This document shows positions 12,546 to 63,616 of a DNA stretch of 64,000 nucleotides, piece by piece (the stretch's first letter is position 1; the number at the start of each line of letters is the position of its first letter). Source of the DNA: Patescibacteria group bacterium (GTDB lineage Bacteria; Patescibacteriota; Minisyncoccia; UBA6257; JACRHW01); assembly GCA_028865725.1 (NCBI GenBank), contig JAGWJP010000001.1, forward strand, positions 294,568-358,567, given 5' to 3'. A program made the position numbers and the translations under genes. Under the pieces are notes generated by a model, which did no database searches, had not been told where the DNA came from, and saw nothing but the letters and a program-made list of their open reading frames with translations.

Positions 12546-14069
12546 CTATGATTCGATAAACACCTCTTCGTGTGGAGAGGTGTTTTTAGGCACGCGAATA
12601 AACAATGCGCTTACTGCCCCTATGCCAAGAAGCACTGATGCGATAGCAAATACATCTCCGTACGAGGCTACTTGAGCTTTCAGTATCATGAGTCCTATCG
12701 CTCGACGATAATCGAGCGCATTGGTGAGATGAATCGTGCTCCACATAGAGATGCGCAGTAATCGTGCTTCTGTGGTGTGTTGTAAGATGGTTCCGAATAT
12801 TGCGATGCCAAATGCACCGGCAATATTGCGTGCCAGTGCAAGGATCGATGAGGCGACACCGATTTCGTGTTGAGGAACTACGGATGCAATGATATTCGTG
12901 CGCTGCGGCATACCAAAACCAAGCCCGAATGCCATAATGGATAAGGGGATAATAATATCAAGCGGACCGGAGCGTGGATCGAGTCGGGAGAACAAAGAAA
13001 TACCAAGCGCGGCTACGAGCGTACTCGCCGCAATTACGTAACGCGGTTCTACTTTTCCTGTAAGATTTCCTCCGATAGGTGCGGCGATGAGCATCATAAA
13101 TGCCATTGGCATGAAGAGGTATCCGGATTGCGTGGCGTCGTATCCCAGAAATGTTTGCACAAAAATCGGAATCAGGAATATGCCGCCCATCATTCCCATA
13201 AAAATAATGATATTGTTGTTCAGCGTGTGTACGAATGCCGGTATTCTAAAGAATTTGAAATCGATAATGGGATCCGGGTGATGCCGTTCTATGGCCACAA
13301 ATACAGCCATAAATACAAGGACGGTACTATAAGCAATTATGCTGTTTGTGGAAAGCCAGCCCCATTCGAGACCTTTGTCGAGCACAAGGACAAGAGCAGA
13401 AAGCGCGCTTCCGAGTGTCAGTGCTCCCCACCAATCGAACACACTCGTTTTCTTTTCCGATGTTGATTCCTTAATAAATGAAAGCGCCATCAAAAGCCCG
13501 ACAATTCCGACTGGTAAGTTGACAAGAAATACCGACCGCCACCCAAACGTATCGATAAGCGGTCCCCCCACAAGCGGTCCAAAGACTGTTGCTGCTGCAA
13601 AGGATGCGGACCAGATTCCAAGAGCTTGCGCACGTTCTTTTCCTTCGCGAAACGTGATCGCAAGAATGGCCATAGCCGTAGGGTAATCCGCGGATCCTGC
13701 AATGGCTTGAATAATGCGAAACGCGATCATGGAAGTAAGGTTCCACGAGAGTCCGGCAAGGATGGATCCTATAATAAATACGACAAACCCAATAATATAT
13801 ACTTTTTTCCTTCCGATTGTATCACCTAGTTTTCCCCATACGGGTACAAAAATTGCGTTGGCAAGAATATACGCGGTGGCAATCCATCCTGCCGCCGAAA
13901 CCGTAATGCCAAAATCGTTAATAATTTTAGGAAGCGCGAGATTGACAATAGTTTGATCAAGTCTCCCCAAAAACGTCCCCACCATTACCGTGAGAAGAAC
14001 GAGCCACCGCGTAGAGGAGGATCCAGCGGGGACAGGGTGCTCGTGCGGAGATGCTATGGGGAGATCCAT
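12546..14069 (-). CDS. MFS drug:H+ antiporter, DHA2 (EmrB/QacA) family, 14-TM type
   Basis: 507 aa. The MFS motifs GRLDQTIVNLALP and GKLGDTIGRKKV are present, and the length and TM count fit DHA2. It overlaps the upstream adaptor gene by 16 nt. Confidence 0.75.
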   Translation of the reverse strand: MDLPIASPHEHPVPAGSSSTRWLVLLTVMVGTFLGRLDQTIVNLALPKIINDFGITVSAAGWIATAYILANAIFVPVWGKLGDTIGRKKVYIIGFVVFIIGSILAGLSWNLTSMIAFRIIQAIAGSADYPTAMAILAITFREGKERAQALGIWSASFAAATVFGPLVGGPLIDTFGWRSVFLVNLPVGIVGLLMALSFIKESTSEKKTSVFDWWGALTLGSALSALVLVLDKGLEWGWLSTNSIIAYSTVLVFMAVFVAIERHHPDPIIDFKFFRIPAFVHTLNNNIIIFMGMMGGIFLIPIFVQTFLGYDATQSGYLFMPMAFMMLIAAPIGGNLTGKVEPRYVIAASTLVAALGISLFSRLDPRSGPLDIIIPLSIMAFGLGFGMPQRTNIIASVVPQHEIGVASSILALARNIAGAFGIAIFGTILQHTTEARLLRISMWSTIHLTNALDYRRAIGLMILKAQVASYGDVFAIASVLLGIGAVSALFIRVPKNTSPHEEVFIES

Positions 14070-14722
14070 ATTTTTGCTGACATTCCATTCTTTAATTCCG
14101 GATACGCATGCGTGTCAAATCGTATTTTGACGTCGAATTGCTTTACCTCGCGCTTATCCGAAATATTAAAGACAATGTCTCCTTGCCGGGAGGAAGGGCT
14201 GATCTCATCTACGATTCCTTCATAGCGTTTTGATCCGAATGCATCCACGGTAAAAGTGGCGCGTGCACCGATACGTATATGTGAAATGCCCTTGTCTTCA
14301 TCGATGTGTCCCACGACTCGCAATGCGTGAGGATCAAACATACTGACGACAGTTTCTCCGCGATTGAATAACTTACCCGTGTTGACATTGACAGATGAAA
14401 CGATGCCGGTAATAGTCGTCTGAAGGAGTTCGTTGCCAACTTGTGCGACAATGGTATTTGCATCAATGACATCTCCTTCGTGAACGTAAATATTTTGCAA
14501 GATACCTTGATTTTGAGGTGCAAGCTCAATAAGGGGTGCTTCGATGTCTGCATTGTCTGTGTAGATTACCCCATGAGTGATACTCAGATATGCAAACGCA
14601 CACGCGCTTCCCAAGAAAAGAAGAGAGATGAGTATGGTAAGAACCCATGCATTTTTCGAGAGGCGTTTCAAAGGGTGTTCATAATGAGGAGGAGTGATGG
14701 TGTGTTCTTCTTGTGGTAACAT
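14054..14722 (-). CDS. short HlyD-family membrane-fusion (periplasmic adaptor) protein
   Basis: 222 aa with an N-terminal TM, a biotin/lipoyl-like domain and a beta-barrel region. It lacks a long coiled-coil hairpin. Confidence 0.55.
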   Translation of the reverse strand: MLPQEEHTITPPHYEHPLKRLSKNAWVLTILISLLFLGSACAFAYLSITHGVIYTDNADIEAPLIELAPQNQGILQNIYVHEGDVIDANTIVAQVGNELLQTTITGIVSSVNVNTGKLFNRGETVVSMFDPHALRVVGHIDEDKGISHIRIGARATFTVDAFGSKRYEGIVDEISPSSRQGDIVFNISDKREVKQFDVKIRFDTHAYPELKNGMSAKIWISP

Positions 14723-21724: not shown

Positions 21725-24700
21725 TTGCGTATGAAAAAAATCAATTTATTTTTTGCTGCCGTTTTTATTGTTTCTGCAGCAAGTTTTTTATACGAATCTC
21801 ATAATGTATCTGCATTTACCGTTGCAGGTGCATTTTTACGAGATTCACAATCATTTAACGTGTTGTTCGATGCTGATGTTGCAAGTTCGACCTTCTCGAC
21901 ATCGACGTTGTCGCTGAGTACTTCTACGCTTCAGGCGGTATCAACCTTCCCAGAAAATACTCGAGAAATTTTTGGAAGTGTCTCTGGTACACTCACAACC
22001 GCCGATACGGTAACGGTATCAAGTACGGCACACGATACGTTGGGCAATGCAAACCTTGCCAGTACGACACCGTTTACCTTTTTACCTGCAATTAAAATTG
22101 CTGCGGTTCGTTCTGGAACAACAGGAAATAATCTAAATGAGTTCATCATGTTATATAACACGATGAATCAAAGTTGGAATGCCAGCTCTGCTCTCCATCT
22201 CCACGTGCTTAATGCGAGCGGACACGACAACGTCATTCCGCTTACGTTTGCAACGTCAACTATTCCGGCAAATGGCTTCTTTTTAATTGCGTCTGCCAAT
22301 GGATATGGTGGTACGATATCTCCCGACGCAACGTATAGTTCTTCCACAGATATCTTAGCTACCTCTACTACCGCTATTTTTATAAATTCCACCTCAACTC
22401 CAACTGATGCTTCTTCTATAGGATCGGTTATTGATAAGGTGGAGTGGGGTGCATCGGCTCAAATTGGGTCTTCAGTTTCTTTCTCGTTTGCCACTACGAC
22501 TGCTAGTACAAGCTTACCGCTTGATTATACATTTGTACGCAAGGCATCTTCCGCGTCTACTCCCGTGAGTATGGCCTCTGGTGGATCTGATAGTAATAAA
22601 GGCAATGGATATGATACGAGAGATAATGCGCAAGATTTTGTAATGCTTTCCGGGTCGTTGTCACCTGCGCTCAAAAATTCTGCGAGTCCGAGCGAGTTTG
22701 CGTCCGGAGGAGGGGTGCAGGATGCGACTGTTCCTATTGTTATGGGATCGTTTCCAAGCGGAATGAATGGGGAGATGGTGCCCACGGATCTGCAGTTCGT
22801 TGGATTTGGGTTTAATAAATCAATGGACGGTTCTACTATCACCTCTTCTACTGTTTCATTAGTACAGCAAGGCCAAGCCACTAATATGTGTTCTTCTGTG
22901 AGTTATAGTAATTCATTTAATACCAGTGGACCTCCGGGGCAATGTACAATTCCTGCAGGCGCGCTTATAGCGGGTTCTACCTATGTTTTCACGATCAAGG
23001 GATCGAGCTCAACCCCGAGCGTTCATGATTCTTCTGGTAATGTACTGAATCAACCGAGTGGACAAAATGGAAATGCCAATCATGATTATCAAGTCATCTT
23101 TACTCCTACATCCGGTTTTACTCTTACTCCGCAAACCCCCCCCAGTATTATAGGAAGCTTTCCCGCACCCGGTGCAAATGGAATTCCTACTAATATATCG
23201 AGTATTTCAATTGGTTTTAGTCAAGCAATAGACCCCGCATCACTCTCTGGGGTTACCCTATTGAGGAGCGGAGGCTCTAATGTACTCAATGCGTTAACAC
23301 CAAAACTTTCTTCTGATGGAAAGTCTGCAACAATTCCCGTATCCGCATCTCCCCTTTTAGCGGGAACGACTTATACGCTCACTGTGCCCACGACAGTAAG
23401 AAATAGCAATAACGTAAATTTGCCACAGACGTATACTGCTTCATTTGTTACCGGTGCGTCTGGCGGTGATATGACGGGGCCCCTTGTGTTAGGACATCTT
23501 CCGAACATTGCGACGGGGGTTCCTGTGAACGCCACAGATATTCATCTTTCTACTGATGATGCGTTGAACCCGACTACGATTACTTCCAGTACGGTTCAAA
23601 TTACTGATGCCAACGGCAATCATATTCCTGGCACATTAACTTATGATTCACTTTCTCAGGAGATTGTGTTTGTGGCTGATAATGTATTTCAAACCAACAC
23701 TCTTTATACGGTAACGTTAAACGCAGCAAGTGCAACACCTGTGATCGAAAACGTGGTAGGATTGCCTCTCCAAGATAGTGACGGGAGTAGTGATAATAAA
23801 TATACATTTAGCTTTACCACTTCGGCGTCTCCTGATACGACCCAGCCTGGACTTTTGGTTGCGAATGCAAACACGTTTTCACTTTCTCTTACTTTTGATG
23901 AAGCAGTGAAACAGACAGAGGCAGAGAATATTGCCAATTACGCCCTTACAAGCGGAGGAAATCCTGTAACACTTTCTTCATTTAATGGGAATACTGCATC
24001 GTACGACCTTTCGACGCATACTGTTACCATCAATAATCTTGCGCTTACCGCAGGAGCATCTTTTAGTGTGACGGTTTCCAATGTGCATGATCTTTCAGGG
24101 AATGTTATCGATCCTACAAAGGTAAGTGCTGGTGGTACCGTTCTTGCCCCTACTTTAAATGGGGGTATCATTGGTATGGGTGGCGGATATATTGCCCCTA
24201 CCAACGGCTTGCCTACGGGATTTTCCAGTGGATCATTTGGTTTTGTTCCTCAGGTAGGTGTTCATCCCATGAATACAACTGCGGGATTTACATCTGGGTA
24301 TGCAGTCGATCTTCCTATTTCTACACAAATCCCTGCGTCGGGAAAAATTGTACTTACCTTTCCCAGCTCATTTACGCTGGCCAATGCTATTGCTGACACC
24401 TTTAGTCCCGCCAATAACGATATCAACGGACCAGGTACTGGTACTGTTACGATTGCAAGCGTAGTGGGCGATGATACAGCGCATACAGTTACCGTGACAT
24501 TAGGCGGTACAGGAACCCAATCGAATGGAGGTGATACGCATGACTTTTTGCATTTTGATCTCGCTCAAATCGTCAATCCTACTGTACCTAATACCGCGGA
24601 TGGTTATACGATTGACATACGAACACTAAATGGGTCAAACTCTCTCGAATCTTTTACCTCCATGCCGTTTTTCATAACTTCGGCAGGAAGTAATAGTTTG

Positions 24701-27700
24701 ACAGTAAATCTTACTGCAAGTGGCGCAACAAATGGAACTTCAACGGTATATCTTTTGTCTCCTCAAACAGGTCCTATTTCGAGAGTGTCAACGGCATTTG
24801 TGGGGGCGAGCTCAACCGTTATCTTTTCTGGATTGCAGAGTGGAATGTACGCACTGATGACCGATCCTATTATTACGCTCACCGGAGGAACATTTATTGG
24901 CCAGTCAAATCCGACTCCTGTGAATGTCAATGGAAGCACATCATTTGCTCTTGCGCTTTCTCCTGCAGGTTCGCTTGCTTCAACGACGGTAAGCATTCAT
25001 GCCACAGGAGCAAAAAAGGTTTCTGTATTTGCAGGGGGTCCTAATGGTTATGTTGACACGCCGCTTACCACTTCAAACGGAACGACTACGGTAGCGATTT
25101 ATTATCCTGCAAACGGTGATTATACGGTAGGTGTTGGTCCGCAGATGAGTAAAACGTTCAACGGTCCTCCTCCTGCACCTGATTATGTGATGCCGCAGCC
25201 AGTTCAAGTTCATGTTGCTTCAAATCTTGCTTCACAAACGACACTGAGTTTCGATCTTGTTTCCGCAGGTCTTACGATCGCCGGTTCTGTCAAAGATGGT
25301 TCTGGAAAAGCAATTACAGGTGCAAACGTGTACGCGTATTCCCCGCAGGGAGGATCAGGGACTTTTGGTACCACAGCATCAGACGGTAGCTTTGCATTAA
25401 ATGTTGCCGCGGGAAGTTATGAAGTAGGCGCACGCGCTCCAGGGTTTCCTTCTGGCATTGATACGCCAGTAGTCGTAGATTCTAGTGGCAGCCTCTTTGT
25501 AAATGGCGCTGCAGCATCTTCTTCCTCGGTAACTGTTAAATTAAGCAAGGGCGGTGTGACCATAAGCGGTAAGGTAACAGATGGAACCAATCCTGTTCAA
25601 GGAGCACAAGTGTGGGCATATTGCGACTCGAGCGTAAGTAACAATGCTTGTTTTGGGCCAAATAGCAATGTTTCTGCACAAACGGATTCTTCCGGAGCCT
25701 TTACACTTTATGTCGGCAATGGAACATGGAAGATAGGATCATTTATTCCAGGATATGGCCAACAGCCCATTCTTACCCAGGTTATTTCTGGTTCAAATGT
25801 AACGCTTTCTGATATTAGGCCGTCAGCAACAGGAACATTTGCGACAGTAAGCGGTACGGTGTGTACGAACACCACATCTGATTGTACGAGCGGATCTCCT
25901 TCTGCGGTTTCTGGCGCAATGATAAGAATTCAAGGAACGGACGCAAGTGGAAATTTCTATTCTAATTCTGTAATTTCTGGGAGCGACGGATCATACTCGT
26001 TTGCATCAAGCGTTCCTTCAGGAGCTGGATCAAGCTATCGAGTGCTTGGCAATGTGGCCGGGCTTGGTGAAATTGCGCCAACAGCAAACTTTTCTGTAAC
26101 AGGAAATGTGAGCAATAAAGATCTTGTTTTGAAAGCGGGGCGCACTGTGAATCTCAATGTGAGCAACCCGCCTTCCACCTACGATATGTTCCTTAAATTC
26201 ACAAACACTACCTCTGGAGTAGCTAATTATCTTACGTTGCACAATAATGCTTCAGGAACAATATCGCTTCAGAATGGATCTACCTATGCTATTGATGCGC
26301 GCGCGCAAGGATTTTCTTTCCCTGTTTCTTTGATTACATTGACAGGGGGTACGGCAACCTATTCAACATCGACGGGGCAGCTTGCTCTTAACGGAGGCTC
26401 CTCGGATACCGTTACTCTTAATCTCGCCTTTCCTGCAGCAAATGTGGTAAGCGGTACGGTGAAAGATGGTTCTGGTACGTTATTATCGAATGCCTGGGTT
26501 GATTTTGCCGATCCAACACACGGATCTCACTTTGGAACGCAATCTAATGCAAGTGGCACCTATTCGCTTCCTATTCAGGATGGTTCGTATCAAGTTTCTG
26601 TATATGCGCCGGGATACTTGCCAAACCCAACATCGCTTTCTTTGGATGGAGGCACGATCACACTTGGAAATGCAACAACTTCAGCAAGTACGGTAAACCT
26701 TATCGCGAACAAGTCGAACCTTTTAATTGCGGGTACTATTACTATAGATGGTTCTCCCGCAGCGAATGCGCTGGTAAAAGGTACGCTTTTGGGTGGTAGT
26801 ACAAGTATTGTGACTGCAAACACTGACGGTACATATTCTTTGCCTGTATCGAATGGCAGCTGGACGGTTACTGCTTCTGCAAATGGATATCAAAATAAAG
26901 ATTATGCTTCAACAGTTACCGTGAACGGTTCTTCGGTATCAGGAGTCGATATCAATCTTACTTCTCTTGCTACTCTCGGTAATCCATCAACCCTTTCTAT
27001 CGTGCCTTCTCAAGGCGGAACGCTTCAAAATGCTTCAGGCACGTTGACGATCGCAGTTCCTGCAAATGCATTGAGTACTTCTGCAAACGCTGGTAAACTC
27101 GCAGCAACCGAAACGAGTAATGTGATCAATACTGCTTCTGCAAAAGTTTTTGGAAACGGTGTTGATATCAGCGCGCAAGATTCTTCTAATAATCCGCTTT
27201 CAAGTGGGTTTACCGATAATGTAGTAATTACGATGGATATAGCAAGCTCCTCATTTGCTGCAGATGCCCTTACAAGCACTAGTACGGCAAGCAAGATGGA
27301 ATTGGGATATTTCAAATCCTCACTGAATGACTGGGTCCCCGTTGAGACAACGCTTACGTATGAGGATGCAAATGGTGCTCCTGTAACTGCGGCGAGCGAT
27401 TTGAGCAACGTTGACCATATCAGCCTGTCGGTTCCTACAAAACACTTTACCGTGTTTGGCATAATCACTCCCACCGATGCGCTTGCGCCAAGTGCTCCTA
27501 CTAACGTTTCTGCGACTCAAAGCGGATCTTCTGCGGTGGTGACATGGACTGCACCGACTACGAATTCTGATGGAACTGCGCTTTCCGATTTGCAGGAATA
27601 TGAGATATATCGGGATACAAGCGCAAGCGGGAGTTTTACAACGCAAGTAAATTCAAGCCAAGTAACGGGGACAACATTTACCGATTCCACTGTTTCAGCA

Positions 27701-28234
27701 GGCACCACATATTACTATAAAGTTTCCGCAGCCGATACGAGTGGAAATGAATCTTCAAAGTCATCTGTTTCATCGGGGCTTGCTGTCGCTGCTCTTGTTT
27801 CCGGAGGAGGTTCCTACTCATCTGCTGCCTCTTCAGCAGCAAACCCTGTAGTTACCACTACAAACACAGAAACCTCAACGGTTGAAAATGCAACGCCAAC
27901 TTCTTCTCCCGTTTCTGCTTCTGTAAGTACGGTAACCACCCCAACATCTACGACAGCCCCCCAAGCAGTTTCTTCTACTGCACATGCAGCCGCAACACTT
28001 ACTCGATCGCTTTCTCTCGGCAGCAAAGACTCCGAAGTGACAACCCTTCAAAAACTTCTCGCATCCGATCCGTCACTTTATCCGGAAGGACTCATATCAG
28101 GCTACTTCGGCGCACTTACCAAGAAAGCAGTCATTCGATTCCAAGAAAAATATGGTATCGCGACTGATGCAGCAACAGCCGGACTTGTAGGACCAGAGAC
28201 ACGTGCGAAATTGATGGAGGTGTTAGGAAGATAG
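21725..28234 (+). CDS. giant (2169 aa) cell-surface protein with LTD, Ig-like, CarboxypepD_reg-like, FN3 and peptidoglycan-binding domains
   Basis: Signal/TM segment MRMKKINLFFAAVFIVSAASF. A lamin-tail-like domain spans roughly aa 120-270 (AIKIAAVRSGTTGNNLNEFIMLYNT...GFFLIASANGYG). Multiple Ig-like/Big repeats follow, then four or more CarboxypepD_reg-like repeats (for example GSVKDGSGKAITGANVYAY...SYEVGARAPGF). An FN3 domain follows (PSAPTNVSATQSGSSAVVTWTAP...YYYKVSAADTSGNES). The C-terminus has a PG_binding_1 domain (LSLGSKDSEVTTLQKLL...GYFGALTKKAVIRFQEKYGI). All minus-strand ORFs inside are judged spurious. Confidence 0.8.
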   Translation: MRMKKINLFFAAVFIVSAASFLYESHNVSAFTVAGAFLRDSQSFNVLFDADVASSTFSTSTLSLSTSTLQAVSTFPENTREIFGSVSGTLTTADTVTVSSTAHDTLGNANLASTTPFTFLPAIKIAAVRSGTTGNNLNEFIMLYNTMNQSWNASSALHLHVLNASGHDNVIPLTFATSTIPANGFFLIASANGYGGTISPDATYSSSTDILATSTTAIFINSTSTPTDASSIGSVIDKVEWGASAQIGSSVSFSFATTTASTSLPLDYTFVRKASSASTPVSMASGGSDSNKGNGYDTRDNAQDFVMLSGSLSPALKNSASPSEFASGGGVQDATVPIVMGSFPSGMNGEMVPTDLQFVGFGFNKSMDGSTITSSTVSLVQQGQATNMCSSVSYSNSFNTSGPPGQCTIPAGALIAGSTYVFTIKGSSSTPSVHDSSGNVLNQPSGQNGNANHDYQVIFTPTSGFTLTPQTPPSIIGSFPAPGANGIPTNISSISIGFSQAIDPASLSGVTLLRSGGSNVLNALTPKLSSDGKSATIPVSASPLLAGTTYTLTVPTTVRNSNNVNLPQTYTASFVTGASGGDMTGPLVLGHLPNIATGVPVNATDIHLSTDDALNPTTITSSTVQITDANGNHIPGTLTYDSLSQEIVFVADNVFQTNTLYTVTLNAASATPVIENVVGLPLQDSDGSSDNKYTFSFTTSASPDTTQPGLLVANANTFSLSLTFDEAVKQTEAENIANYALTSGGNPVTLSSFNGNTASYDLSTHTVTINNLALTAGASFSVTVSNVHDLSGNVIDPTKVSAGGTVLAPTLNGGIIGMGGGYIAPTNGLPTGFSSGSFGFVPQVGVHPMNTTAGFTSGYAVDLPISTQIPASGKIVLTFPSSFTLANAIADTFSPANNDINGPGTGTVTIASVVGDDTAHTVTVTLGGTGTQSNGGDTHDFLHFDLAQIVNPTVPNTADGYTIDIRTLNGSNSLESFTSMPFFITSAGSNSLTVNLTASGATNGTSTVYLLSPQTGPISRVSTAFVGASSTVIFSGLQSGMYALMTDPIITLTGGTFIGQSNPTPVNVNGSTSFALALSPAGSLASTTVSIHATGAKKVSVFAGGPNGYVDTPLTTSNGTTTVAIYYPANGDYTVGVGPQMSKTFNGPPPAPDYVMPQPVQVHVASNLASQTTLSFDLVSAGLTIAGSVKDGSGKAITGANVYAYSPQGGSGTFGTTASDGSFALNVAAGSYEVGARAPGFPSGIDTPVVVDSSGSLFVNGAAASSSSVTVKLSKGGVTISGKVTDGTNPVQGAQVWAYCDSSVSNNACFGPNSNVSAQTDSSGAFTLYVGNGTWKIGSFIPGYGQQPILTQVISGSNVTLSDIRPSATGTFATVSGTVCTNTTSDCTSGSPSAVSGAMIRIQGTDASGNFYSNSVISGSDGSYSFASSVPSGAGSSYRVLGNVAGLGEIAPTANFSVTGNVSNKDLVLKAGRTVNLNVSNPPSTYDMFLKFTNTTSGVANYLTLHNNASGTISLQNGSTYAIDARAQGFSFPVSLITLTGGTATYSTSTGQLALNGGSSDTVTLNLAFPAANVVSGTVKDGSGTLLSNAWVDFADPTHGSHFGTQSNASGTYSLPIQDGSYQVSVYAPGYLPNPTSLSLDGGTITLGNATTSASTVNLIANKSNLLIAGTITIDGSPAANALVKGTLLGGSTSIVTANTDGTYSLPVSNGSWTVTASANGYQNKDYASTVTVNGSSVSGVDINLTSLATLGNPSTLSIVPSQGGTLQNASGTLTIAVPANALSTSANAGKLAATETSNVINTASAKVFGNGVDISAQDSSNNPLSSGFTDNVVITMDIASSSFAADALTSTSTASKMELGYFKSSLNDWVPVETTLTYEDANGAPVTAASDLSNVDHISLSVPTKHFTVFGIITPTDALAPSAPTNVSATQSGSSAVVTWTAPTTNSDGTALSDLQEYEIYRDTSASGSFTTQVNSSQVTGTTFTDSTVSAGTTYYYKVSAADTSGNESSKSSVSSGLAVAALVSGGGSYSSAASSAANPVVTTTNTETSTVENATPTSSPVSASVSTVTTPTSTTAPQAVSSTAHAAATLTRSLSLGSKDSEVTTLQKLLASDPSLYPEGLISGYFGALTKKAVIRFQEKYGIATDAATAGLVGPETRAKLMEVLGR

Positions 28235-31719: not shown

Positions 31720-34104
31720 ATGAACGCAAAACAGGTTTCTATTCCCACTGTTCTTGTTATTTTTGGTGCAACCGGAGATCTTATGGCTCGGAAAATCGCT
31801 CCTGCATTATTTAACCTCTCGCAAAAAGGAAAGCTCCCTGAGAAACTGAGATTTGTAGGGGTAGCGCGAAGAGAGTTGTCCTCCATCGATTTTCGTAAAC
31901 ATTTAAAAGACGCGCTCAAAGGGCGTGTAAAGGGTACTTCAACACAGGTTCATGAGTTTCTTGATATGTTTCTGTACCACCAAGGACTTCTTGATGCGCG
32001 CGAAATGTATATTTCTCTCGCAGAGGTACTCCATAGTATTGATGAAGAGTGGGGTGTGTGCAGTAACAAACTTTTTTATCTCGCGGTTCCTCCGGAGCTT
32101 TACAAAACGATATTCGAACATCTTGCCGCATCAGGGCTTACTATTCCTTGTGGAGGGGATGAAGGGTGGACACGTGTCCTTGTGGAAAAGCCGTTTGGGA
32201 GCGATCTGGCAACCGCAGAGGAACTTGATCGGGTATTGGGTTCCTTGTTCCACGAGAGTCAGATTTACCGCATCGATCATTATCTCGCGAAAGAAATGAT
32301 ACAGAATATTCTCGCATTTCGTTTTTCCAACAATCTTTTTGAAGAGAGCTGGGATGCGCACCACATTGAACGTATCGACATACGACTGTTCGAGACGCTC
32401 GGGGTAGAGGAGCGCGGAATGTTTTATGATCACGTGGGCGCATTGGTGGATGTGGGACAAAACCATCTCTTGCAGATGCTCGCGCTTATTGCGATGGACC
32501 CCCCTACTTCTCTCGGCGCGGAGAGCGTGCGAAAAGCGCGCGCACATATTTTAGAGAGTTTGCATCCAATGTCTTCTCGCGATATCCAGTATGCCACCTT
32601 TCGTGGCCAGTATAGGGGGTATTTGGACATTAAAGGCGTGCGTCCTCGCTCTACCACGGAGACATTTTTTAAGATTATTACGACACTTGATCATCCGCGC
32701 TGGGGATCTGTTCCATTTGTGCTGGAAGGCGGGAAAGGGATGGCGGAACAGCGAAAAGAGATTGTGGTTACGTTTCGTCACCCCACCCCGTGTTTGTGTC
32801 CCCCTCTGCAACACTACAAAAATAAGGTTATTATCTCGCTCGAGCCTCATGAAAGTATTGTGATTCAATTTTGGTCTAAGAAACCAGGATTTGATTTTCA
32901 AATGGAAGAACGCACCTTTGATTTCTTTTTGCGTGATGCGAAGGTGAGATCTCAGTATGTAGAAGAGTATGAAAAATTGCTTCTTGATTGTATCGCGGGA
33001 GATCAAACGTTGTTTGTAAGTACCGATGAGGTGCGTGCGATGTGGAGGTTTATTGATCCTATCGTAGCTGCATGGCGCGGTGAAAAAACGGTGCCCGTTG
33101 TTTCTTATACGCGCGGATCGAATGAGGCGGCAGAAAAGTCGGTTGTGCTTGAGAAGTCTTTGCTTCCTGTAACACTAAAGCATAAAGAAGTTGCGATTGT
33201 GGGATTGGGAAAAATGGGTGGAAATATTGCGCGCCAGCTTTTGCGGAAGGGGTGGCATGTCACAGGGTTTAATCGCTCGCGTGAGGCGACTGACGCACTC
33301 ACGAAGGAAGGGCTTTGTGGCGTGTATGAGGCAAAAAATCTTTTCGATACGCTTCACGCTCCTCGTATCTTCTGGTTTATGCTGCCGTCGCGCGAAACAG
33401 GGAATATCGCACCCATCGACGGGATATTATTTGGGAAAAATGGAATTGCAGCACAGCTTCGCAAAGGCGATATTGTGATTGATGGCGCAAACGCGTTTTA
33501 TAAGGATTCGATACGCCGCTATCGCGCGCTCAAAAAGCGTGGGGTAGGGTTTCTTGACGTAGGTGTTTCAGGTGGCCCTCAAGGCGCACTCCGTGGCGCA
33601 TCGCTCATGATTGGGGGTGATCGTGAAGTGTTTCTGCGCGCAGAGCCACTGTTTCGTGATATTGCGGAGTTGGGTGCCTACCAATTCTTCGAAGGCGCAG
33701 GTGCGGGACATTTTGTGAAGATGGTACACAACGGCATTGAGTACGGAATGATGCAGGCCTTGGCAGAAGGGTTTGCGATTATGAAGGCTTCGAAGTACCA
33801 CCTCGATCTTACTCGTGTTGCTGATGTCTACAACCATGGCAGTGTGATAGAGTCACGTCTTGTGGGTTGGTTGAAACAAGGGTTTATTACCTATGGCGAG
33901 GATCTTCGTAGTGTTTCAGGGACGGTGGGGCATACCGGTGAGGGGGCATGGACTGTTGAGACCGCAAAAGAACTGAAGGTGCAGGTAAAGATTATTGAGG
34001 GCGCGCTCCAGTTTCGCAAACAGTCCGCAAAGAACCCAAGTTATACAGGAAAGATTCTTAGCATGATTCGTAACCAGTTCGGAGGACACAGTATTAGTAG
34101 TTAG
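31720..34104 (+). CDS. zwf: fused glucose-6-phosphate 1-dehydrogenase / 6-phosphogluconate dehydrogenase (decarboxylating, short form)
   Basis: The N-terminal ~480 aa carry VIFGATGDLMARKIAPALFNL (the G6PD NADP fold), RIDHYLAKEMIQNILAFRFSN (the G6PD active-site motif) and a G6PD C-terminal domain. The C-terminal ~300 aa carry VAIVGLGKMGGNIARQL, GVSGGPQGALRGASLMIGG and GAGHFVKMVHNGIEYGMMQ (6PGDH/Gnd-like). The start is preferred at ATG 31720. Confidence 0.75.
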   Translation: MNAKQVSIPTVLVIFGATGDLMARKIAPALFNLSQKGKLPEKLRFVGVARRELSSIDFRKHLKDALKGRVKGTSTQVHEFLDMFLYHQGLLDAREMYISLAEVLHSIDEEWGVCSNKLFYLAVPPELYKTIFEHLAASGLTIPCGGDEGWTRVLVEKPFGSDLATAEELDRVLGSLFHESQIYRIDHYLAKEMIQNILAFRFSNNLFEESWDAHHIERIDIRLFETLGVEERGMFYDHVGALVDVGQNHLLQMLALIAMDPPTSLGAESVRKARAHILESLHPMSSRDIQYATFRGQYRGYLDIKGVRPRSTTETFFKIITTLDHPRWGSVPFVLEGGKGMAEQRKEIVVTFRHPTPCLCPPLQHYKNKVIISLEPHESIVIQFWSKKPGFDFQMEERTFDFFLRDAKVRSQYVEEYEKLLLDCIAGDQTLFVSTDEVRAMWRFIDPIVAAWRGEKTVPVVSYTRGSNEAAEKSVVLEKSLLPVTLKHKEVAIVGLGKMGGNIARQLLRKGWHVTGFNRSREATDALTKEGLCGVYEAKNLFDTLHAPRIFWFMLPSRETGNIAPIDGILFGKNGIAAQLRKGDIVIDGANAFYKDSIRRYRALKKRGVGFLDVGVSGGPQGALRGASLMIGGDREVFLRAEPLFRDIAELGAYQFFEGAGAGHFVKMVHNGIEYGMMQALAEGFAIMKASKYHLDLTRVADVYNHGSVIESRLVGWLKQGFITYGEDLRSVSGTVGHTGEGAWTVETAKELKVQVKIIEGALQFRKQSAKNPSYTGKILSMIRNQFGGHSISS

Positions 34105-34290
34105 TATGTCAGTGTATTAATACGTTATATTTGCCACTCGAGTTTCGGGTATAGGGTGTGTGAGAAAATAGAAGGCAGCAAATAGAAAATAGTATGCGAA
34201 CGTATTCTGAACCAGCTGAAGAAGCGAAGAGAATAAGTCGAGAATCTTCCCGATTCTAAACCCATTAACACGCAATACAAACGAATCTCT

Positions 34291-34372
34291 AAGCACTAAT
34301 TACTAAGCACTAATTACTCTCGTTACGTTCTCGTTTGTGATAACTAACACACTAACAAACTCAACAATGATG
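34291..34372 (+). promoter_or_regulatory. conserved upstream element (tandem 14-bp duplication plus a shared motif pair), also present upstream of rseP at about 63561..63612
   Basis: Perfect tandem AAGCACTAATTACT x2 at 34291-34318. The block ACTAATTACTCTCGTTACGTTC is followed by the 12-mer ACTAACAAACTC, ending 4 nt before the ATG at 34367. The same 12-mer and a 26-mer with 4 mismatches occur 4 nt before the rseP start. Confidence 0.4.
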
Positions 34373-35727: not shown

Positions 35728-35780
35728 TAAATAAATTCCAAATTTTTGCCTTTTGATTTTTAACTTTTGCATTTACTATT

Positions 35781-36509: not shown

Positions 36510-36677
36510 ATAAATCCAAAACTACAATGGAAAAATCAAAAATATTTTTTGAATACTTTTGAATTTTGAGTTTAAATTTTTCCTTTTGATGTTTGAGTTA
36601 AAGAATAATGATTAAAGTCGATATTAAATTTTAAGTTGGAAGTGTAGAAAATAAGAAATAATTATAATTTTTGTTAA

Positions 36678-36908
<231 letters not shown>

Positions 36909-37054
36909 ACACTTTTTGTTTGGCGCATAGCTTTGTTAGAAACTATATTTCCCGCTCACCATACCAATCGTGTATGGCTCGCGGGAAGCCTCGTTTCTTT
37001 CTCGCTCTGCATCCAAACAAAGAAGTGTTTTTCGCAGCTTGTTATTTGCCTCAT

Positions 37055-37110
37055 TTTTCTACTATTTTCTAGATTCTATTTTCTAGTTTCTAGATACTAG
37101 ATTCTTCATG
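37055..37110. repeat. TCTAGA-rich repeat cluster in the atpE-atpF spacer
   Basis: TTTTCTAGATTCTATTTTCTAGTTTCTAGATACTAGATTC contains three CTAGA(T) cores. It is related to AATCTAGAA clusters at about 46150-46185 and about 60733-60766. Confidence 0.4.
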
Positions 37111-37115
37111 TACGT

Positions 37116-37643
37116 ATGTCAGACTTTATTACTCATTTTGGTATTGACTGGAAACTTCTTCTTGCTCAGATTGTCAATTTTGGTGTACTCTTGTTTTTGC
37201 TGAAGCGATTTGTTTACGGTCCCATCCTCACGATTCTAAAAACAAGGAAAGAAAAGATTGAACAAGGTCTTCAATACGCTCGAGATGCGGAGGAAGAGCT
37301 TAAGCATACCGAGATATTGCGGCAAGAGATCTTAGAATCTGCAAAACGAGAGGCGCATGCGATTGTTGCTCGCGCAGAAAGCAGTGCGCAACAACGAGAA
37401 GCCGAATTACTTGAAGTAACGCATAAAAAAACAGAGATCGCAATTGCAGAGGCAAGGCGTATTATTCAAGATGAAAAGGTAAAGATGCAGAATGAGTTTC
37501 AAGGCGAGGCAGAAGCACTTGTGCGCGCAGGTATCATAAAAGTGCTCGGCGAGCTCCCGGCTGAAGTGCGCGATGCATCTCTTGTGGCTGACGCAGTACG
37601 TGAATTAAAATCCCTTTCTCCTGAGAAAACAAAAAGACCATGA
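37116..37643 (+). CDS. atpF: F0F1 ATP synthase subunit b
   Basis: 175 aa with an N-terminal TM (LLLAQIVNFGVLLFLL) and a long charged helix. It sits between atpE and atpH. Confidence 0.7.
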   Translation: MSDFITHFGIDWKLLLAQIVNFGVLLFLLKRFVYGPILTILKTRKEKIEQGLQYARDAEEELKHTEILRQEILESAKREAHAIVARAESSAQQREAELLEVTHKKTEIAIAEARRIIQDEKVKMQNEFQGEAEALVRAGIIKVLGELPAEVRDASLVADAVRELKSLSPEKTKRP

Positions 37644-44184: not shown

Positions 44185-46158
44185 ATGTTTAATCTCATAT
44201 CTCATAATAGGCCCGCGGGTGATCAGCCTGATGCGATCAGGTCTCTTGTGCACGGACTTGAACAGGGGTTTGCGAAACAAACGCTTCTTGGCGTTACGGG
44301 ATCGGGGAAGACATTTACAGTCGCCAACGTCATCGCAAAGATGAATATCCCGACGCTTGTGATTGCTCACAATAAGACACTTGCGGCACAGCTTTGCAAT
44401 GAGTTCCGGGAGCTGTTTCCGAAGAATTCGGTACACTATTTTGTTTCGTATTACGATTATTATCAGCCGGAAGCGTATATTCCTTCCTCCGATACCTATA
44501 TTGGAAAAGAAGCGATGGTGAATGAAGAAATCGATAAGCTCCGCCACGCAGCTACTACCGCGCTCCTGACGCGGCGCGATGTGATCATTGTAGCCTCAGT
44601 ATCGTGTATTTACGGATTAGGTGCGCCCGAAGCGTACCGCGAAAATATCTTGCATGTGAAGGTGGGGGATATGATCGAGCGCGCAGCATTTATGAAAAAG
44701 CTCGTCACGCTTCAATTTACTCGTACGAACGCAGACCTTACTCGTGCGACCTTTCGTGTGCGTGGAGACAATTGGGAGATTATGCCTCCAGACCGCGAAA
44801 TCATTTATTCATTCCATTGTGCAGAAGGCGTGGTACGAGAGATTTATGAAGTGAATCCTGTTGAAGGGTTTGTCCCAGGCGTTACCGCGACTGTTCCCGA
44901 GGTTGTTTTTGCTCCGGCTAAACATTTTATTACCAGTGTTTCAGATCGCACACGCGCGATGAAAGCGATTGAAGCAGAGTTAAAAGAGCGACTTCGATAT
45001 TTTGAGCAGAACCAAAAATATCTTGAGGCGGAACGTCTTGAGCGGCGCACAAAAGCAGATCTGGCAATGATGCGCGAAGTAGGGTATTGCAATGGCATCG
45101 AAAATTATTCGCGCCATCTTTCAGGGCGCGCGCCGGGAGATCCCCCCGATACGCTGCTTGATTATTTTCCCGAAGACTTTTTAACGGTGATCGATGAGTC
45201 TCATGTGACGGTGCCTCAGATTGAGGGAATGCAGGCGGGAGATGCTTCGCGTAAAAAGACCTTAGTAGATTTTGGATTTCGTCTTCCTTCTGCAAAAGAT
45301 AATCGTCCGCTTACGTTTCAGGAGTTTTCTGCGCGCGTGCATCGCGTGATGTATACGTCCGCCACGCCAGGCTCCTACGAACTTACTCACAGCGATCAGG
45401 TAGTTGAACAAATCATTCGTCCTACCGGGCTTGTGGATCCCGAAATTACCATTTGTCCTGTACAAGGCCAGGTGAGCGATCTTATTCCTCGTATTGAGGC
45501 GCGCGTGAAGGTTCATGAGCGCGTACTGGTTACGACGCTTACCAAAAAAATGGCGGAAGACCTCAGTGCGTTTCTTGAGGAAAAGGGAATTAAGGTATCC
45601 TACCTTCATAGTGATGTAAAAACACTAGATCGGGTACGCATTTTGACGGGGCTTCGCAAAGGAGAGTTTGATGTGCTGGTGGGGGTGAACCTTCTGCGTG
45701 AGGGGCTTGATTTACCCGAGGTGTCTCTTGTTGCGATTCTTGATGCCGACAAGGAAGGATTTTTGCGCAGTGAGACGTCACTCGTTCAAACAATCGGCCG
45801 TGCGGCGCGGAATGTACGAGGAGAGGTGGTAATGTACGCTGATGTTATGACCGGTTCCATTACGCGGGCGGTACAAGAAACAAATCGTAGACGTTCCCTT
45901 CAACTTGCCTACAACGAGAAATACCACATCATACCAAAAACGGTGCTAAAAGAGATTACCGATATTCTTCCTACCGGGCGTATTTTGCAACTTGAAATGA
46001 AACCTGTTCCTACGTCTAAAAAACAGCGTTCCGAATTTATTAAAGAAAAAGAACATGAAATGCGTGAGGCGGCAGGGCGCCTTGATTTCGAACTCGCTGC
46101 CATTTTACGTGACGAACTTAAGGAGCTTCAAAAAGATCAAAAGAAAAAGAGAAACTAG
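44185..46158 (+). CDS. uvrB: excinuclease ABC subunit B
   Basis: 657 aa. Walker A GVTGSGKTFT, the beta-hairpin region, helicase motifs and the C-terminal UVR domain (LDFELAAILRDELKELQ). Confidence 0.95.
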   Translation: MFNLISHNRPAGDQPDAIRSLVHGLEQGFAKQTLLGVTGSGKTFTVANVIAKMNIPTLVIAHNKTLAAQLCNEFRELFPKNSVHYFVSYYDYYQPEAYIPSSDTYIGKEAMVNEEIDKLRHAATTALLTRRDVIIVASVSCIYGLGAPEAYRENILHVKVGDMIERAAFMKKLVTLQFTRTNADLTRATFRVRGDNWEIMPPDREIIYSFHCAEGVVREIYEVNPVEGFVPGVTATVPEVVFAPAKHFITSVSDRTRAMKAIEAELKERLRYFEQNQKYLEAERLERRTKADLAMMREVGYCNGIENYSRHLSGRAPGDPPDTLLDYFPEDFLTVIDESHVTVPQIEGMQAGDASRKKTLVDFGFRLPSAKDNRPLTFQEFSARVHRVMYTSATPGSYELTHSDQVVEQIIRPTGLVDPEITICPVQGQVSDLIPRIEARVKVHERVLVTTLTKKMAEDLSAFLEEKGIKVSYLHSDVKTLDRVRILTGLRKGEFDVLVGVNLLREGLDLPEVSLVAILDADKEGFLRSETSLVQTIGRAARNVRGEVVMYADVMTGSITRAVQETNRRRSLQLAYNEKYHIIPKTVLKEITDILPTGRILQLEMKPVPTSKKQRSEFIKEKEHEMREAAGRLDFELAAILRDELKELQKDQKKKRN

Positions 46159-46185
46159 AATTGAAAATCTCGAATCTAGAAAGAA
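46150..46185. repeat. AATCTAGAA-motif pair at the uvrB 3' end
   Basis: GAAACTAGAATTGAAAATCTCGAATCTAGAAAG carries the same CTAGAA core as the 37055-37110 and 60733-60766 clusters. Confidence 0.35.
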
Positions 46186-46254
46186 GGAGTGAGCGAAACG
46201 ACTCGAGGAGCTACCCTTAAAAGAAAAAACCGCATTGGGCGGTTTGCGATTTTA

Positions 46255-46503
46255 TTATTGTATAAATTTTGGCCTTTTGATGCCGGAAAATAGACGGAAG
46301 AGGAAAGATCTGTAGTCTTTGATCAGGAGATCAGTTTGACAGTGTTTATTTGGACAAACTACATATATATAATTTGCTGACGCCCATCCGTTTAAATCAT
46401 ATCGGATATCGGGTTCCTTGTATTCGAATACACAACCACATGCAGTGCATTTCAATTTTCCTTCTTTGCGATAGTGTTGTTTTCCTTCCACAACGATACG
46501 CAT
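46255..46503 (-). CDS. small zinc-ribbon protein
   Basis: 82 aa from Met 46503. It has the Cys pairs CTACGC and CPNKHC. It follows the upstream minus-strand gene by 4 nt. Confidence 0.4.
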   Translation of the reverse strand: MRIVVEGKQHYRKEGKLKCTACGCVFEYKEPDIRYDLNGWASANYIYVVCPNKHCQTDLLIKDYRSFLFRLFSGIKRPKFIQ

Positions 46504-55661: not shown

Positions 55662-55745
55662 AATAAATTTAAAACTCAAAATGCAAAAGTCAAAACTAAA
55701 ACTTAAAAATAAAAACTATATTCCGTTAGTTTTAACTTTTGATTT

Positions 55746-58763: not shown

Positions 58764-58813
58764 TTGACAATATATGTTGATATGATATAATTGCATCATC
58801 AAAGAAAGGAGGG
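58764..58813 (+). promoter_or_regulatory. near-consensus sigma-70 promoter with extended -10 plus consensus Shine-Dalgarno
   Basis: TTGACA (58764-58769), 16-bp spacer, then TGATATAAT (TGn + TATAAT, 58783-58791). AAAGGAGG at about 58805-58812 lies 7 nt before the ATG at 58821. Confidence 0.5.
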
Positions 58814-60732: not shown

Positions 60733-60766
60733 GTCAGAATCTAGAATATAGAAAATCTAGAATTTA
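60733..60766. repeat. AATCTAGAA-motif pair upstream of mreB
   Basis: GAATCTAGAATATAGAAAATCTAGAATT: two copies, 16 bp apart, about 60-90 bp upstream of the mreB start. Confidence 0.4.
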
Positions 60767-60827
60767 GGATAAAGAATTTCGCTGTTTGTTTTTCTCGTAT
60801 TTATTTTTTTTCTATCCCATCATTATA

Positions 60828-61838
60828 ATGATTTCTCGCATTGGTATTGATTTAGGCACGGCAAATACGCTTGTGTTTGTCCCGAAGAAGGGCGTGGTGA
60901 TGAACGAGCCTTCTATTGTTGCGCTTGATAACAAAACGCGCGCGGTTTTGGCCGTAGGAAAGGAAGCGAAAGAAATGCTCGGCAGAACTCCTGAGGATAT
61001 TGGCGCCTACCGTCCGCTAAAAGATGGAGTAATCGCGGATTATTATATTACGAAGTCGATGCTGAAATATTTTATTACCAAAGCGACAGGTTTCTCATTT
61101 TTTAAGCCTGAAGTGGTAATCTCTGTGCCCGCAGGGATTACGTCTACCGAACGGCGCGCGGTTATTAGCGCGGCGGAAGAAGCGGGGGCTAAAACGGCGT
61201 ATGTTGTGAAGGAGCCCATTCTTGCCGCGCTTGGTGCGGGTATTCCTATTAATTCTCCGTCGGGTAATATGATTGTGAATATTGGCGGAGGCACGACAGA
61301 GGTGGCCGTTATTTCACTTGGGGGGATTGTGGCTTCCCGCTCGCTCCGTATCGCCGGCAACAAGTGCGATCAGGCGATTGCGGAGTACGTGAAGAAAAAG
61401 TATTCACTTGCAATTGGAGAACAGACGGCGGAAGGAATTAAGATTGAGATTGGGTCGGCCCTGCCCATGAAGGCTAAACTTGAGATGCAGGTGCGCGGAC
61501 GAGATCTGGTGAGCGGATTCCCTCAGGTGATTACCATGAATTCAAATGAAGTGGCATCTGCAATTTCTGATCTGCTTCTTGACGTAATTCGTACCGTGAA
61601 AGATGTTTTTAACGAAACGCCTCCTGAACTTGCTGCTGATGTAATGGACAAAGGGATTGTAGTGAGTGGCGGAGGGGCATTGTTACGTAATATCGATGAA
61701 TACATCAAAAAAATGACGGGCGTGTCCGCGTTTTGTGTCGATAACAGTCTTTTTTCAGTAGTCAATGGCGCCGGAATGGTTATTAATCACCTTGATACGT
61801 ATCAACGTGCTCTGGTAACAAAGCGATTTCATGCCTAA
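60828..61838 (+). CDS. mreB: rod-shape-determining actin homologue MreB
   Basis: IGIDLGTANTLV (phosphate-1), VISVPAGITSTERRAV, the actin-fold ATPase motifs GGGTTEVAVIS and VVSGGGALLRN. The start is preferred at Met 60828 (MISRIGIDLG). Confidence 0.9.
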   Translation: MISRIGIDLGTANTLVFVPKKGVVMNEPSIVALDNKTRAVLAVGKEAKEMLGRTPEDIGAYRPLKDGVIADYYITKSMLKYFITKATGFSFFKPEVVISVPAGITSTERRAVISAAEEAGAKTAYVVKEPILAALGAGIPINSPSGNMIVNIGGGTTEVAVISLGGIVASRSLRIAGNKCDQAIAEYVKKKYSLAIGEQTAEGIKIEIGSALPMKAKLEMQVRGRDLVSGFPQVITMNSNEVASAISDLLLDVIRTVKDVFNETPPELAADVMDKGIVVSGGGALLRNIDEYIKKMTGVSAFCVDNSLFSVVNGAGMVINHLDTYQRALVTKRFHA

Positions 61839-62673: not shown

Positions 62674-62918
62674 CCTTTCGCCGTCTTTGGGTGGTATTTT
62701 AGATCAGCGTTTTCGTACGTCGCATCATCAACCATCTCGGGATATTCCAGGATTTTTGTTATTTTGACCTATTGAAGAAAGCGAATATAAACGATAGAAT
62801 GAACATGTATCTTGTGAAGGACCTATCGTGAGCCGACTATAGACTGCAGGTATTTTTGTTTTTTTATAACTGGCGTCCTCATACACTAACAGACTAACTA
62901 GCTAATAATCTTAGAGTT

Positions 62919-63458: not shown

Positions 63459-63616
63459 CAGTGTTCGTAGTCAGTGCGTAGTGATGAGGCATTCATGTAT
63501 TCAATCTTGTTGGAAATTTGCATGTACCTACTTATTAAAAACTTTTCTAAACACTAGGCATTAAGAACTAATTACTTTCGTTGCGCTCATACACCAAAAG
63601 ACTAACAAACTCGATT

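Follow-up and report, generated by a model that had tools for sequence, protein, structure and literature searches.

We analysed a 64-kb stretch of the genome of a 'Patescibacteria group bacterium' (the window; part of contig JAGWUQ010000001.1 of the metagenome-assembled genome (MAG) GCA_028868355.1), in which words containing CTAG or TCTAGA are concentrated at three places: the spacer between atpE and atpF (locus 1), the 3' end of uvrB (locus 2), and the region upstream of mreB (locus 3). These words are the in-register core of degenerate arrays of 7-bp direct repeats, with a unit of about (C/T)TAGAA(W). The arrays are best read as a lineage-specific member of the class of intergenic heptanucleotide repeats that resembles STRR, TAACTGA, or GGGAATC, and we put the probability that they form a degenerate heptanucleotide tandem family, born by slippage and with at most a cis role in the spacers, at roughly 60%. 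The organism is an uncultured, sparsely sampled member of the Patescibacteria that is also present in the sequencing runs SRR32006849 and SRR32006840, and the part of its genome covered here is the window together with an extension to 81 kb. Pfam matches place atpB, atpE, atpF, atpH, uvrB, uvrA, and mreB where the original prediction, an earlier note on the CTAG words made from the sequence alone, had assumed them to be; 9.6% of the window is intergenic.

CTAG words and the seven-base register

The sparseness of CTAG words across the window and their pile-up at three loci, from which the original prediction had started, are both real, and every word that it quoted was found in its place. CTAG occurs 42 times, against 242 expected from mononucleotide composition or 70 from a Markov model, and is thus depleted overall; 13 of the 42 matches lie in the intergenic 9.6% of the window, 8 of these 13 in the three loci. 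TCTAGA shows a mild overall depletion (6 observed versus 10.6 expected; 94 of 100 shuffles reach 6), with five of its six matches inside the three loci and five of the six intergenic. The 9-mer AATCTAGAA, said to occur at least four times, always between genes and more often than by chance, does so: it or its reverse complement has 4 exact matches in the window (at 37067 on the minus strand and at 46173, 60738, and 60754 on the plus strand), all intergenic, versus 0.73 expected, and none of 100 dinucleotide shuffles reaches 4. The proposed comparison of intergenic with coding DNA puts TCTAGA, ATCTAG, and AATCTAGA at the top of the enriched words of lengths 6 to 8 in the window.

What had been missed is the strict 7-bp register of the words. 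A search with GAATCTAGAAT, allowing two mismatches, gives matches in this register at all three loci (37066, 37073, 37080, 37087, and 37094 on the minus strand; 46151, 46165, and 46172; 60737 and 60744, then 60753 and 60760). TAG-N4 repeated three times is found 7 times in the window where 0.17 are expected, compared to 0 at period 6 and 1 at period 8, and Tandem Repeats Finder (TRF) calls period 7 at loci 1 and 3. Given the register, the TRF period, and the TAG-N4 excess, the words are units of tandem direct repeats. A unit that ends in C instead of T gives rise to CTAG together with the unit after it, and the accumulation of CTAG thus follows simply from the sequence of the units. The suggestion that the words mark a miniature repeat family was therefore in essence right, with the modification that the family consists of heptanucleotide tandem-repeat arrays. 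A further suggestion, that the words are avoided in coding DNA because of a restriction-modification (R-M) system, fits the overall depletion of CTAG and its relative tolerance in spacers. It does not, however, lead one to expect clusters or a register of 7 bp, and the annotated genes in the 81 kb include no methyltransferase or endonuclease of R-M type; we return to it below as a variant of a reading in which the arrays are functionless.

The array at locus 1 (37056..37111, minus strand; TRF period 7, 6.3 copies, 78% matches) reads TAGTATC TAGAAAC TAGAAAA TAGAATC TAGAAAA TAG on the minus strand, with six TAG at an exact spacing of 7 nt. On the plus, mRNA-sense strand it reads TTTCTAC TATTTTC TAGATTC TATTTTC TAGTTTC TAGATAC TAGATTC and ends 5 nt before the atpF ATG (37116). 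Three CTAGA(T) cores had been described in this spacer, and CTAGAT is indeed present three times; CTAG is present four times in all, the fourth being CTAGTT.

At locus 3 (60735..60780, plus strand; TRF period 7, 5.7 copies), the array reads CAGAATC TAGAATA TAGAAAA-TC-TAGAATT TAGGATA AAGAATT, which corresponds to 3+3 units with a 2-nt offset, in a divergent region shared with a 467-amino-acid open reading frame (ORF) that has no Pfam match. The array lies 48-93 nt upstream of the mreB ATG. Both words reported upstream of mreB are present; the start of the gene is the annotated ATG at 60828 and not 60786 as had been assumed, which puts these words 65-90 nt upstream of it. Two mreB paralogues lie 5 kb apart, the one in the window (60828-61838) and another approximately 2.1 kb past the window end (13183-14232 of the fetched locus L087). 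Only the second is followed by mreC and a gene for a PBP2-type transpeptidase; the first, which has the heptad array upstream, is followed by a DNA polymerase III delta'-like gene.

Locus 2 (46151..46185, plus strand), a degenerate heptad run recovered by the GAATCTAGAAT register search, is the weakest of the three arrays and falls under the threshold of the sliding lag scan described below. It consists of about 5 degenerate units (GAAACTA GAATTGA AAATCTC GAATCTA GAAAGAA) between the uvrB stop codon and a bidirectional terminator at 46227-46245. Both of the copies reported here as intergenic exist, but the first word, AAACTAGAATT, is not purely intergenic since the uvrB stop TAG (46156-46158) lies within it and within the first unit. 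The CTAGAAT and AATCTAG words of this locus could form a stem of 10 positions with 9 pairs and one A.A (-12 kcal/mol, z-score (z) -1.4). The sequence CTAGAAAGAAGGAGTGA at 46176-46194 is a very strong extended Shine-Dalgarno (SD)-like sequence that no start codon follows at a distance suited to initiation, and an AAGGAG 3' of the array has no ORF behind it. A class II aminoacyl-tRNA synthetase gene approximately 8.2 kb past the window end carries at its 3' end a site that resembles the uvrB 3' end, GAACTAGAAACTAGTTTC (L087, 19244-19262), in which two CTAG are spaced by 7 bp and which includes a perfect 12-bp palindrome, GAAACTAGTTTC.

Locus 1 is thus a spacer within an operon, locus 2 a gene end that precedes a terminator, and locus 3 a divergent promoter region. 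Their predicted RNA structure is not significant (z between -2.1 and +1.1), and they are unstructured or weakly folded: the fold of locus 1 is weak (z -0.8), and that of locus 3 is less structured than its shuffles (z +1.1).

This architecture bears directly on the proposal that the near-palindromic word is the site of a dimeric protein, with each AATCTAGAWT near-palindrome bound by one dimer of a transcription factor and the two sites per locus acting cooperatively. TCTAGA is a perfect 6-bp palindrome, the 9-mer AATCTAGAA is over-represented, the two copies per locus have centre-to-centre distances of 21 (locus 1), 21 (locus 2), and 16 bp (locus 3), and locus 3 does lie in a divergent promoter region. 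However, the symmetry ends at the 6-bp TCTAGA core, beyond which the flanks (GAAT...GAAT) repeat directly; the AATCTAGATT-like palindromes are units of a direct 7-bp repeat with no dyad symmetry over both half-sites, and a spacing of 21 bp is three heptads. Only locus 3 is in a promoter-type region, loci 1 and 2 being no promoter regions, and a consensus scan predicts no sense-strand σ70-like promoter at any of the three. The 7-bp architecture recurs with non-palindromic units in neighbouring spacers, and the CTAG site is not kept in the two nearest relatives (AtpF 47-52% identical), whose atpE-atpF spacers of 84 bp and 7 bp have no CTAG array. A regulator with matching specificity was also looked for: the only ones seen in the window are a MarR protein, an extracytoplasmic function (ECF) sigma factor, and a receiver-only protein, none of them linked to the sites. 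We therefore consider dimeric operators very unlikely.

The possibility that TAGAAT serves as the -10 box of a σ70 promoter was considered separately and rejected, with no promoter-like site on the sense strand of any locus and counts at chance level.

Heptanucleotide families in other spacers

A sliding self-similarity scan of the window yields segments only at lag 7 and none at lags 4-6 or 8-12, and all lag-7 segments are intergenic. The intergenic autocorrelation likewise peaks at lags 7 and 14. The same lag-7-only result is obtained in the 81-kb extension, which adds one TTCTA-type array (72864-72900). In an all-against-all BLAST of the spacers, similarity is restricted to the arrays and sorts them into families, and at least three families of heptanucleotide arrays are present in non-coding spacers of this genome. 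The TAGAA family has five loci in the 81 kb (34163, 37056, 46151, 60735, and 72864), with the unit in sense orientation to the downstream gene at 34163, 46151, and 60735 and in antisense orientation at 37056 and 72864. The TTTTGA family is found by BLAST at 35742, 36553, 55671, and 46264. A mobile element of the MITE or REPIN type was rejected, as the spacers share no flanks beyond the heptads, except for the leaders of pgi and of an M50 peptidase gene.

The TAGAA-family array upstream of pgi (34163..34197, plus strand; TRF period 7, 4.3 copies) reads GAGAAAA TAGAAGG CAGCAAA TAGAAAA TAGTATG and matches locus 1 at 12/12 and 11/11 positions in inverse orientation. The pgi leader itself contains an array of a further heptad family, CTAAGCA CTAATTA twice (34284..34318, plus strand; TRF and lag scan), corresponding to TAG-N4 on the minus strand. 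The leaders of pgi (34280-34369) and of the M50 peptidase gene (63540-63619) are homologous, with 82% identity over 90 aligned columns, and share a CTAAnCA/CTAATTA heptad array as well as an identical ACTAACAAACTC 5-6 nt before the start codon. A motif of the ACTAACAnACTAAC type, with a period of 8, is found at 34343-34362, 62885-62904, and 63601-63612 (the exact 12-mer occurs twice), at most 35 nt upstream of the starts of pgi, the ribosome recycling factor gene, and the M50 peptidase gene. A specific enrichment of CTAG or CTAA just upstream of start codons was rejected, since it is no more than the general intergenic enrichment explains.

Copies of the TTTTGAn (or nTCAAAA) family lie at 35742-35774, 36553-36589, 46264-46281, and 55665-55745. 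The first of these (35742..35774, plus strand; TRF and BLAST) reads TTTTTGC CTTTTGA TTTTTAA CTTTTGC, ends 7 nt before the atpB start, and has matches of 17-18 nt to 55679-55715 and 46264-46281. The array in the atpB-atpE spacer (36553..36589, plus strand; GC content of the spacer 19%) matches 55672-55690 over 19 nt at 95% in inverse orientation and is preceded by nTCAAAA-type units, also in inverse orientation. The TCAAAA-family array at 55665..55745 (plus strand; TRF and lag scan), with AAAACTC AAAATGC AAAAGTC AAAACTA among its units, has a short inverted partner (TTAGTTT TAACTTT TGATTT), giving a predicted hairpin that abuts the ATG at 55746 (z -2.75; 1 of 200 shuffles folds as well). In the ctxAB promoter of Vibrio cholerae, tandem TTTTGAT heptads of variable copy number are bound by ToxR and H-NS. 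These are likewise tandem 7-bp direct repeats upstream of a gene, with nearly the same unit as the TTTTGAn family of the window; in contrast to that single virulence promoter, the arrays described here occupy many loci, some of them within operons or at 3' ends, and a ToxR-like gene was not seen.

In many bacterial genomes, heptamers outnumber all other long simple repeats, with slippage of the polymerase as the proposed cause (PMC4679880, PMC4692102); their excess was noticed in 2007 (Mrazek 2007, as cited in PMC4679880, PMC4692102). Intergenic families include STRR in Calothrix and Nostoc, GGGAATC in Xanthomonas, and GGGGAYT in Nostoc, some of them as inverted pairs, as well as TAACTGA, most copies of which immediately precede start codons, in marine Beggiatoaceae, cyanobacteria, and Bacteroidetes (PMC4679880, PMC4692102). 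The arrays of the window resemble these families in consisting of tandem 7-nt units, with at least three of them head to tail at each locus (6 at locus 1, 3+3 at locus 3, and about 5 degenerate ones at locus 2), and in being confined to intergenic DNA, often directly upstream of starts and also in intra-operon spacers. As in the known families, one or a few genome-specific units may be dispersed over many loci (five TAGAA/TTCTA-type arrays in the 81 kb), some as inverted pairs, and slippage is the proposed origin. Like TAACTGA, the repeated unit, here TAGAATC, gives stop codons in all frames. There are also differences. The unit YTAGAAW is AT-rich where the known ones are G-rich, and the arrays have no more than 3-6 units, which are degenerate and not near-perfect. 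They face either way with respect to genes, whereas the Beggiatoa repeats are mostly forward, and the host is a Patescibacteria MAG. A full-text literature search returned no report of heptamer repeats in Patescibacteria.

A link to genes without SD sites, as in Beggiatoa, was also considered. About 80% of the genes here lack an SD anyway, so that there is no contrast on which such a link could be based. In about 64 annotated or ORF-called starts, a recognisable SD motif within 20 nt of the start is present in only about a fifth of genes; since a few genes do have a strong GGAGG, the anti-SD is probably intact but little used.

According to the slippage reading, the arrays would arise and turn over by slipped-strand or template-switch duplication favouring 7-nt units, and would persist only in spacers, where a unit whose length is indivisible by three, and which brings TAG into every frame of both strands, is tolerated. 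The spacers in which the arrays lie are probably transcribed. If the arrays are active at all, they probably act there in cis and not as the operator of a sequence-specific dimeric repressor; they may form a leader or stand-by region, fold into small TCTAGA-TCTAGA hairpins, or provide the building blocks of intercistronic hairpins. Because predicted folding is weak or absent, the unit occurs in both orientations, and the arrays fit the known heptamer class, we favour slippage or template switching as their source and allow them no more than a role in cis.

The exact TAG-N4 spacing, kept over six units at locus 1 and over two blocks of three at locus 3, also accommodates a different reading, in which a multimerising protein would bind along the arrays and recognise one unit per 7 nt or bp, with YTAGRAW as the recognition word, either on RNA as HutP does or on DNA in the manner of omega/ParB. 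Both proteins provide precedents. HutP reads XAG-N4 three times on each of its faces, and its anti-terminator RNA sites in Bacillus consist of AG-ending triplets, mostly UAG, present three times with 4-nt spacers in each of two blocks on either side of a terminator stem (PMC2425495); locus 3 can be read in the same way as CAG/UAG/UAG followed by UAG/UAG/AAG. In contrast to HutP sites, the linker at locus 3 is 2 nt and not 12-17 nt, no terminator adjoins locus 1 or locus 3, and the UAG-N4 run of locus 1 is on the antisense strand; no match to PF09021 was found among the scanned window proteins. The omega (ParB) ribbon-helix-helix protein of pSM19035 coats at least four contiguous 7-bp heptads, direct or inverted, with one heptad per dimer (PMC9499535). 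Contiguous 7-bp units in either orientation are present here as well, and this orientation independence fits a DNA-reading protein; the minimum of four is exceeded at locus 1 (6 units), while locus 3 offers only 3+3 units separated by a 2-nt offset, a gap for which the pSM19035 system has no tolerance. In place of YTAGAAW, the omega protein has the unit WATCACW. Moreover, its sites are plasmid promoters and centromeres rather than chromosomal intra-operon spacers, and the two orientations seen in relatives of our organism are separated by loops. Small ORFs yielded no ribbon-helix-helix, Arc, MetJ, or omega Pfam match at E<=1, there is no ribbon-helix-helix or ParA gene nearby, and the annotated parts of the 81 kb contain no HutP, ribbon-helix-helix, or other candidate gene. 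Overall, a multimeric reader strikes us as possible but unlikely.

Heptad hairpins in relatives and the weight of the readings

Among species-representative genomes, the nearest AtpA is 74-75% identical, and among 5.8 billion proteins the nearest AtpF is 52% identical; the databases hold no close relatives in which conservation of the sites could be followed. In the two nearest relatives, the atp spacers contain heptad arrays with other units, arranged as inverted pairs. Pairing of this kind is common in the loci that we fetched (with gene calls that are in part longest-ORF calls made for this analysis): an inverted partner lies no more than 150 nt away for 71 of the 113 intergenic heptad arrays, versus 9-12 in controls. 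The density of lag-7 arrays in Patescibacteria loci is 14.6 per 100 kb, compared to 1.5-4.9 at other lags that are not multiples of three; in other phyla, the corresponding values are 4.95 per 100 kb and about 2-2.6.

In other Patescibacteria, nearly every atp intercistronic spacer is a hairpin of 50-100 nt whose arms are runs of about four heptads; these spacer hairpins lie at 8449-14928 in L019, 1984-8400 in L090, 6617-13170 in L092, 9605-10010 in L084, and 9597-13524 in L085. Three of these loci form a clade (L019, L090, and L092; AtpF about 80% identical), in which every atp intercistronic spacer has a hairpin. With two or three sequences per spacer, the arms of orthologous hairpins in the clade are identical at 300 of 342 positions versus 91 of 124 for the unpaired parts. 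There are also some compensatory changes, loops have been lost, some units have been replaced, and in several spacers the whole hairpin has been swapped for one with a different heptad. Mismatches in the arms are G.U in 27 cases and A.C in 25, with no strand asymmetry that would distinguish the RNA from the DNA level. Selection at the RNA level on the hairpins of relatives is suggested by these data but not proven, because the compensatory changes could stem from template switching between the arms and there is no strand bias in the mismatches.

REP/BIME and REPIN elements of enterobacteria and pseudomonads are short dispersed intercistronic palindromes, with a classical role in mRNA stabilisation or processing. 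The hairpins of the relatives are similar in being short dispersed palindromes within operons, with family copies in each genome. They differ in that the arms are 7-periodic, the units vary by spacer and species, there are no shared flanks, and no RAYT-type gene was seen; the CTAG arrays of the window, in addition, are solitary.

CTA/TAG is the rarest triplet in the loci (1.8%), yet it is the most enriched triplet in the repeat units. Arrays with TAG or CTA in three successive heptads number 34, in 11 of 30 Patescibacteria loci, compared to 3 at period 6 and 3 at period 8, and in other phyla only 4 were found in 869 kb. The units that recur across lineages (TAGAAAT, TAGGAAT, TAGATAT, and TAGAATT) resemble TAGAATC, TAGAAAA, TAGAATT, and TAGGATA of the window.

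These results can be held against a reading in which the arrays are functionless by-products of chance slippage in AT-rich low-complexity DNA, with recurrence of the unit due to composition. The arrays are degenerate, their position is not kept among relatives, and the literature ascribes the excess of heptamer simple sequence repeats to polymerase slippage (PMC4679880, PMC4692102), all as this reading would have it. Composition would not lead one to expect a single 9-mer at four sites, however, nor the greatest enrichment at period 7, across lineages, of the rarest triplet. In the relatives, conservation is higher in the hairpin arms than in their loops, and each atp spacer keeps a hairpin even where its sequence has been replaced. 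For these reasons we regard the functionless reading, including its variant with R-M avoidance in coding DNA, as distinctly improbable.

The TAG/CTA excess at period 7, and the presence of similar TAGRAAT units in several lineages in spite of rapid array turnover, would suit a conserved multimeric protein that reads the units. Set against this, TAG is missing from the units of many other heptad arrays in these genomes, and arrays in nearly every atp spacer of the relatives would be odd for a specific regulator. A broader version of the idea, which we put forward tentatively and do not expect to hold, is a conserved Patescibacteria 'heptad code', in which runs of YTAGRAW or of its complement, with an exact 7-nt period, would be recognised by a multimeric protein that binds RNA or DNA, or would base-pair with some conserved RNA, for example the 3' tail of 16S rRNA. 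The partner of UAGAAA would be a tail ending in ...CCUCCUUUCUA; none of the fetched loci contains a 16S sequence. On this view, the units would be modules from which intercistronic hairpins are continually rebuilt, and the CTAG arrays of the window would be solitary modules.

Several points weigh against the reading that we prefer, a slippage-born family with at most a cis role. The arrays of the window are degenerate (65-83% matches) yet identical in the assemblies, so that ongoing slippage is not demonstrated: locus 1 is 100% identical, with no copy-number polymorphism, across three assemblies of the organism, which possibly represent one strain, and the relatives show the gain or loss of one unit (A-G spacer). 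As the CTAG arrays are solitary, unlike the hairpin pairs of the relatives, and their predicted folds are no better than those of shuffled sequences, a hairpin role is not simply transferable to them. A single RNA function tied to one strand is hard to reconcile with units that face the downstream gene in either orientation, and the balance of G.U and A.C mismatches in the hairpin arms gives no strand asymmetry either. Neutral slippage alone does not predict that a unit with the rarest triplet recurs across lineages, which hints at a reader or a constraint. Finally, the evidence from the genome itself is limited to 81 kb.

Taken alone, the finding is modest: an odd CTAG pile-up is explained as a heptamer repeat family, and a spurious lead to a regulon or operator is removed. 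Its wider interest lies in the Patescibacteria, which have small genomes, few regulators, and mostly no SD sites, yet have operon spacers filled with 7-periodic arrays. These are often paired as hairpins, their architecture is kept while the sequence turns over, and TAG-N4 is strongly favoured among the units. Dense, short, and comparable arrays in a conserved operon make a tractable comparative system for separating a bias of polymerase slippage from a requirement for RNA structure and from a reader protein. If the 'heptad code' were true, it would organise operon expression in genomes that are mostly without SD sites.

Other features of the window

Directly after the atpE stop codon, a very stable stem-loop with 27-nt arms is predicted at 36903..37033 (plus strand). 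The fold of 36900-37125 has an energy of -66 kcal/mol (z -7.2; none of 200 shuffles is as good) and no Rfam match. This stem-loop of about 130 nt is not built from heptads and lies upstream of the CTAG array, with which it accounts for the 207 nt of the atpE-atpF spacer. As a candidate stabiliser, processing site, or attenuator of the mRNA, it could separate the c-subunit from the other genes of the atp operon. Scanning the window for Rfam families and tRNAs gave no matches.

GC skew is positive over the whole window, which therefore lies on one replichore. A replication origin was rejected on the basis of this uniform skew and of DnaA boxes at chance level. A 175-nt spacer with 27% GC that contains TTATCCACA and TTATCCATA is probably not an origin, because there is no GC-skew switch there. 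It lies upstream of an ORF of 2169 amino acids (21725-28234) with Big_5 and CarboxypepD_reg repeats and PG_binding_1.

A perfect σ70 consensus promoter (TTGACA, 16 nt, TG-extended TATAAT; 12/12) is present at 58764-58791 and ends at the TTG start of a 97-amino-acid ORF without a Pfam match, which suggests a leaderless transcript or a small RNA. Lastly, a single gene of 794 amino acids at 31720-34104 has G6PD_N/G6PD_C domains followed by NAD_binding_2/6PGD domains and appears to encode a fusion of glucose-6-phosphate dehydrogenase with 6-phosphogluconate dehydrogenase.

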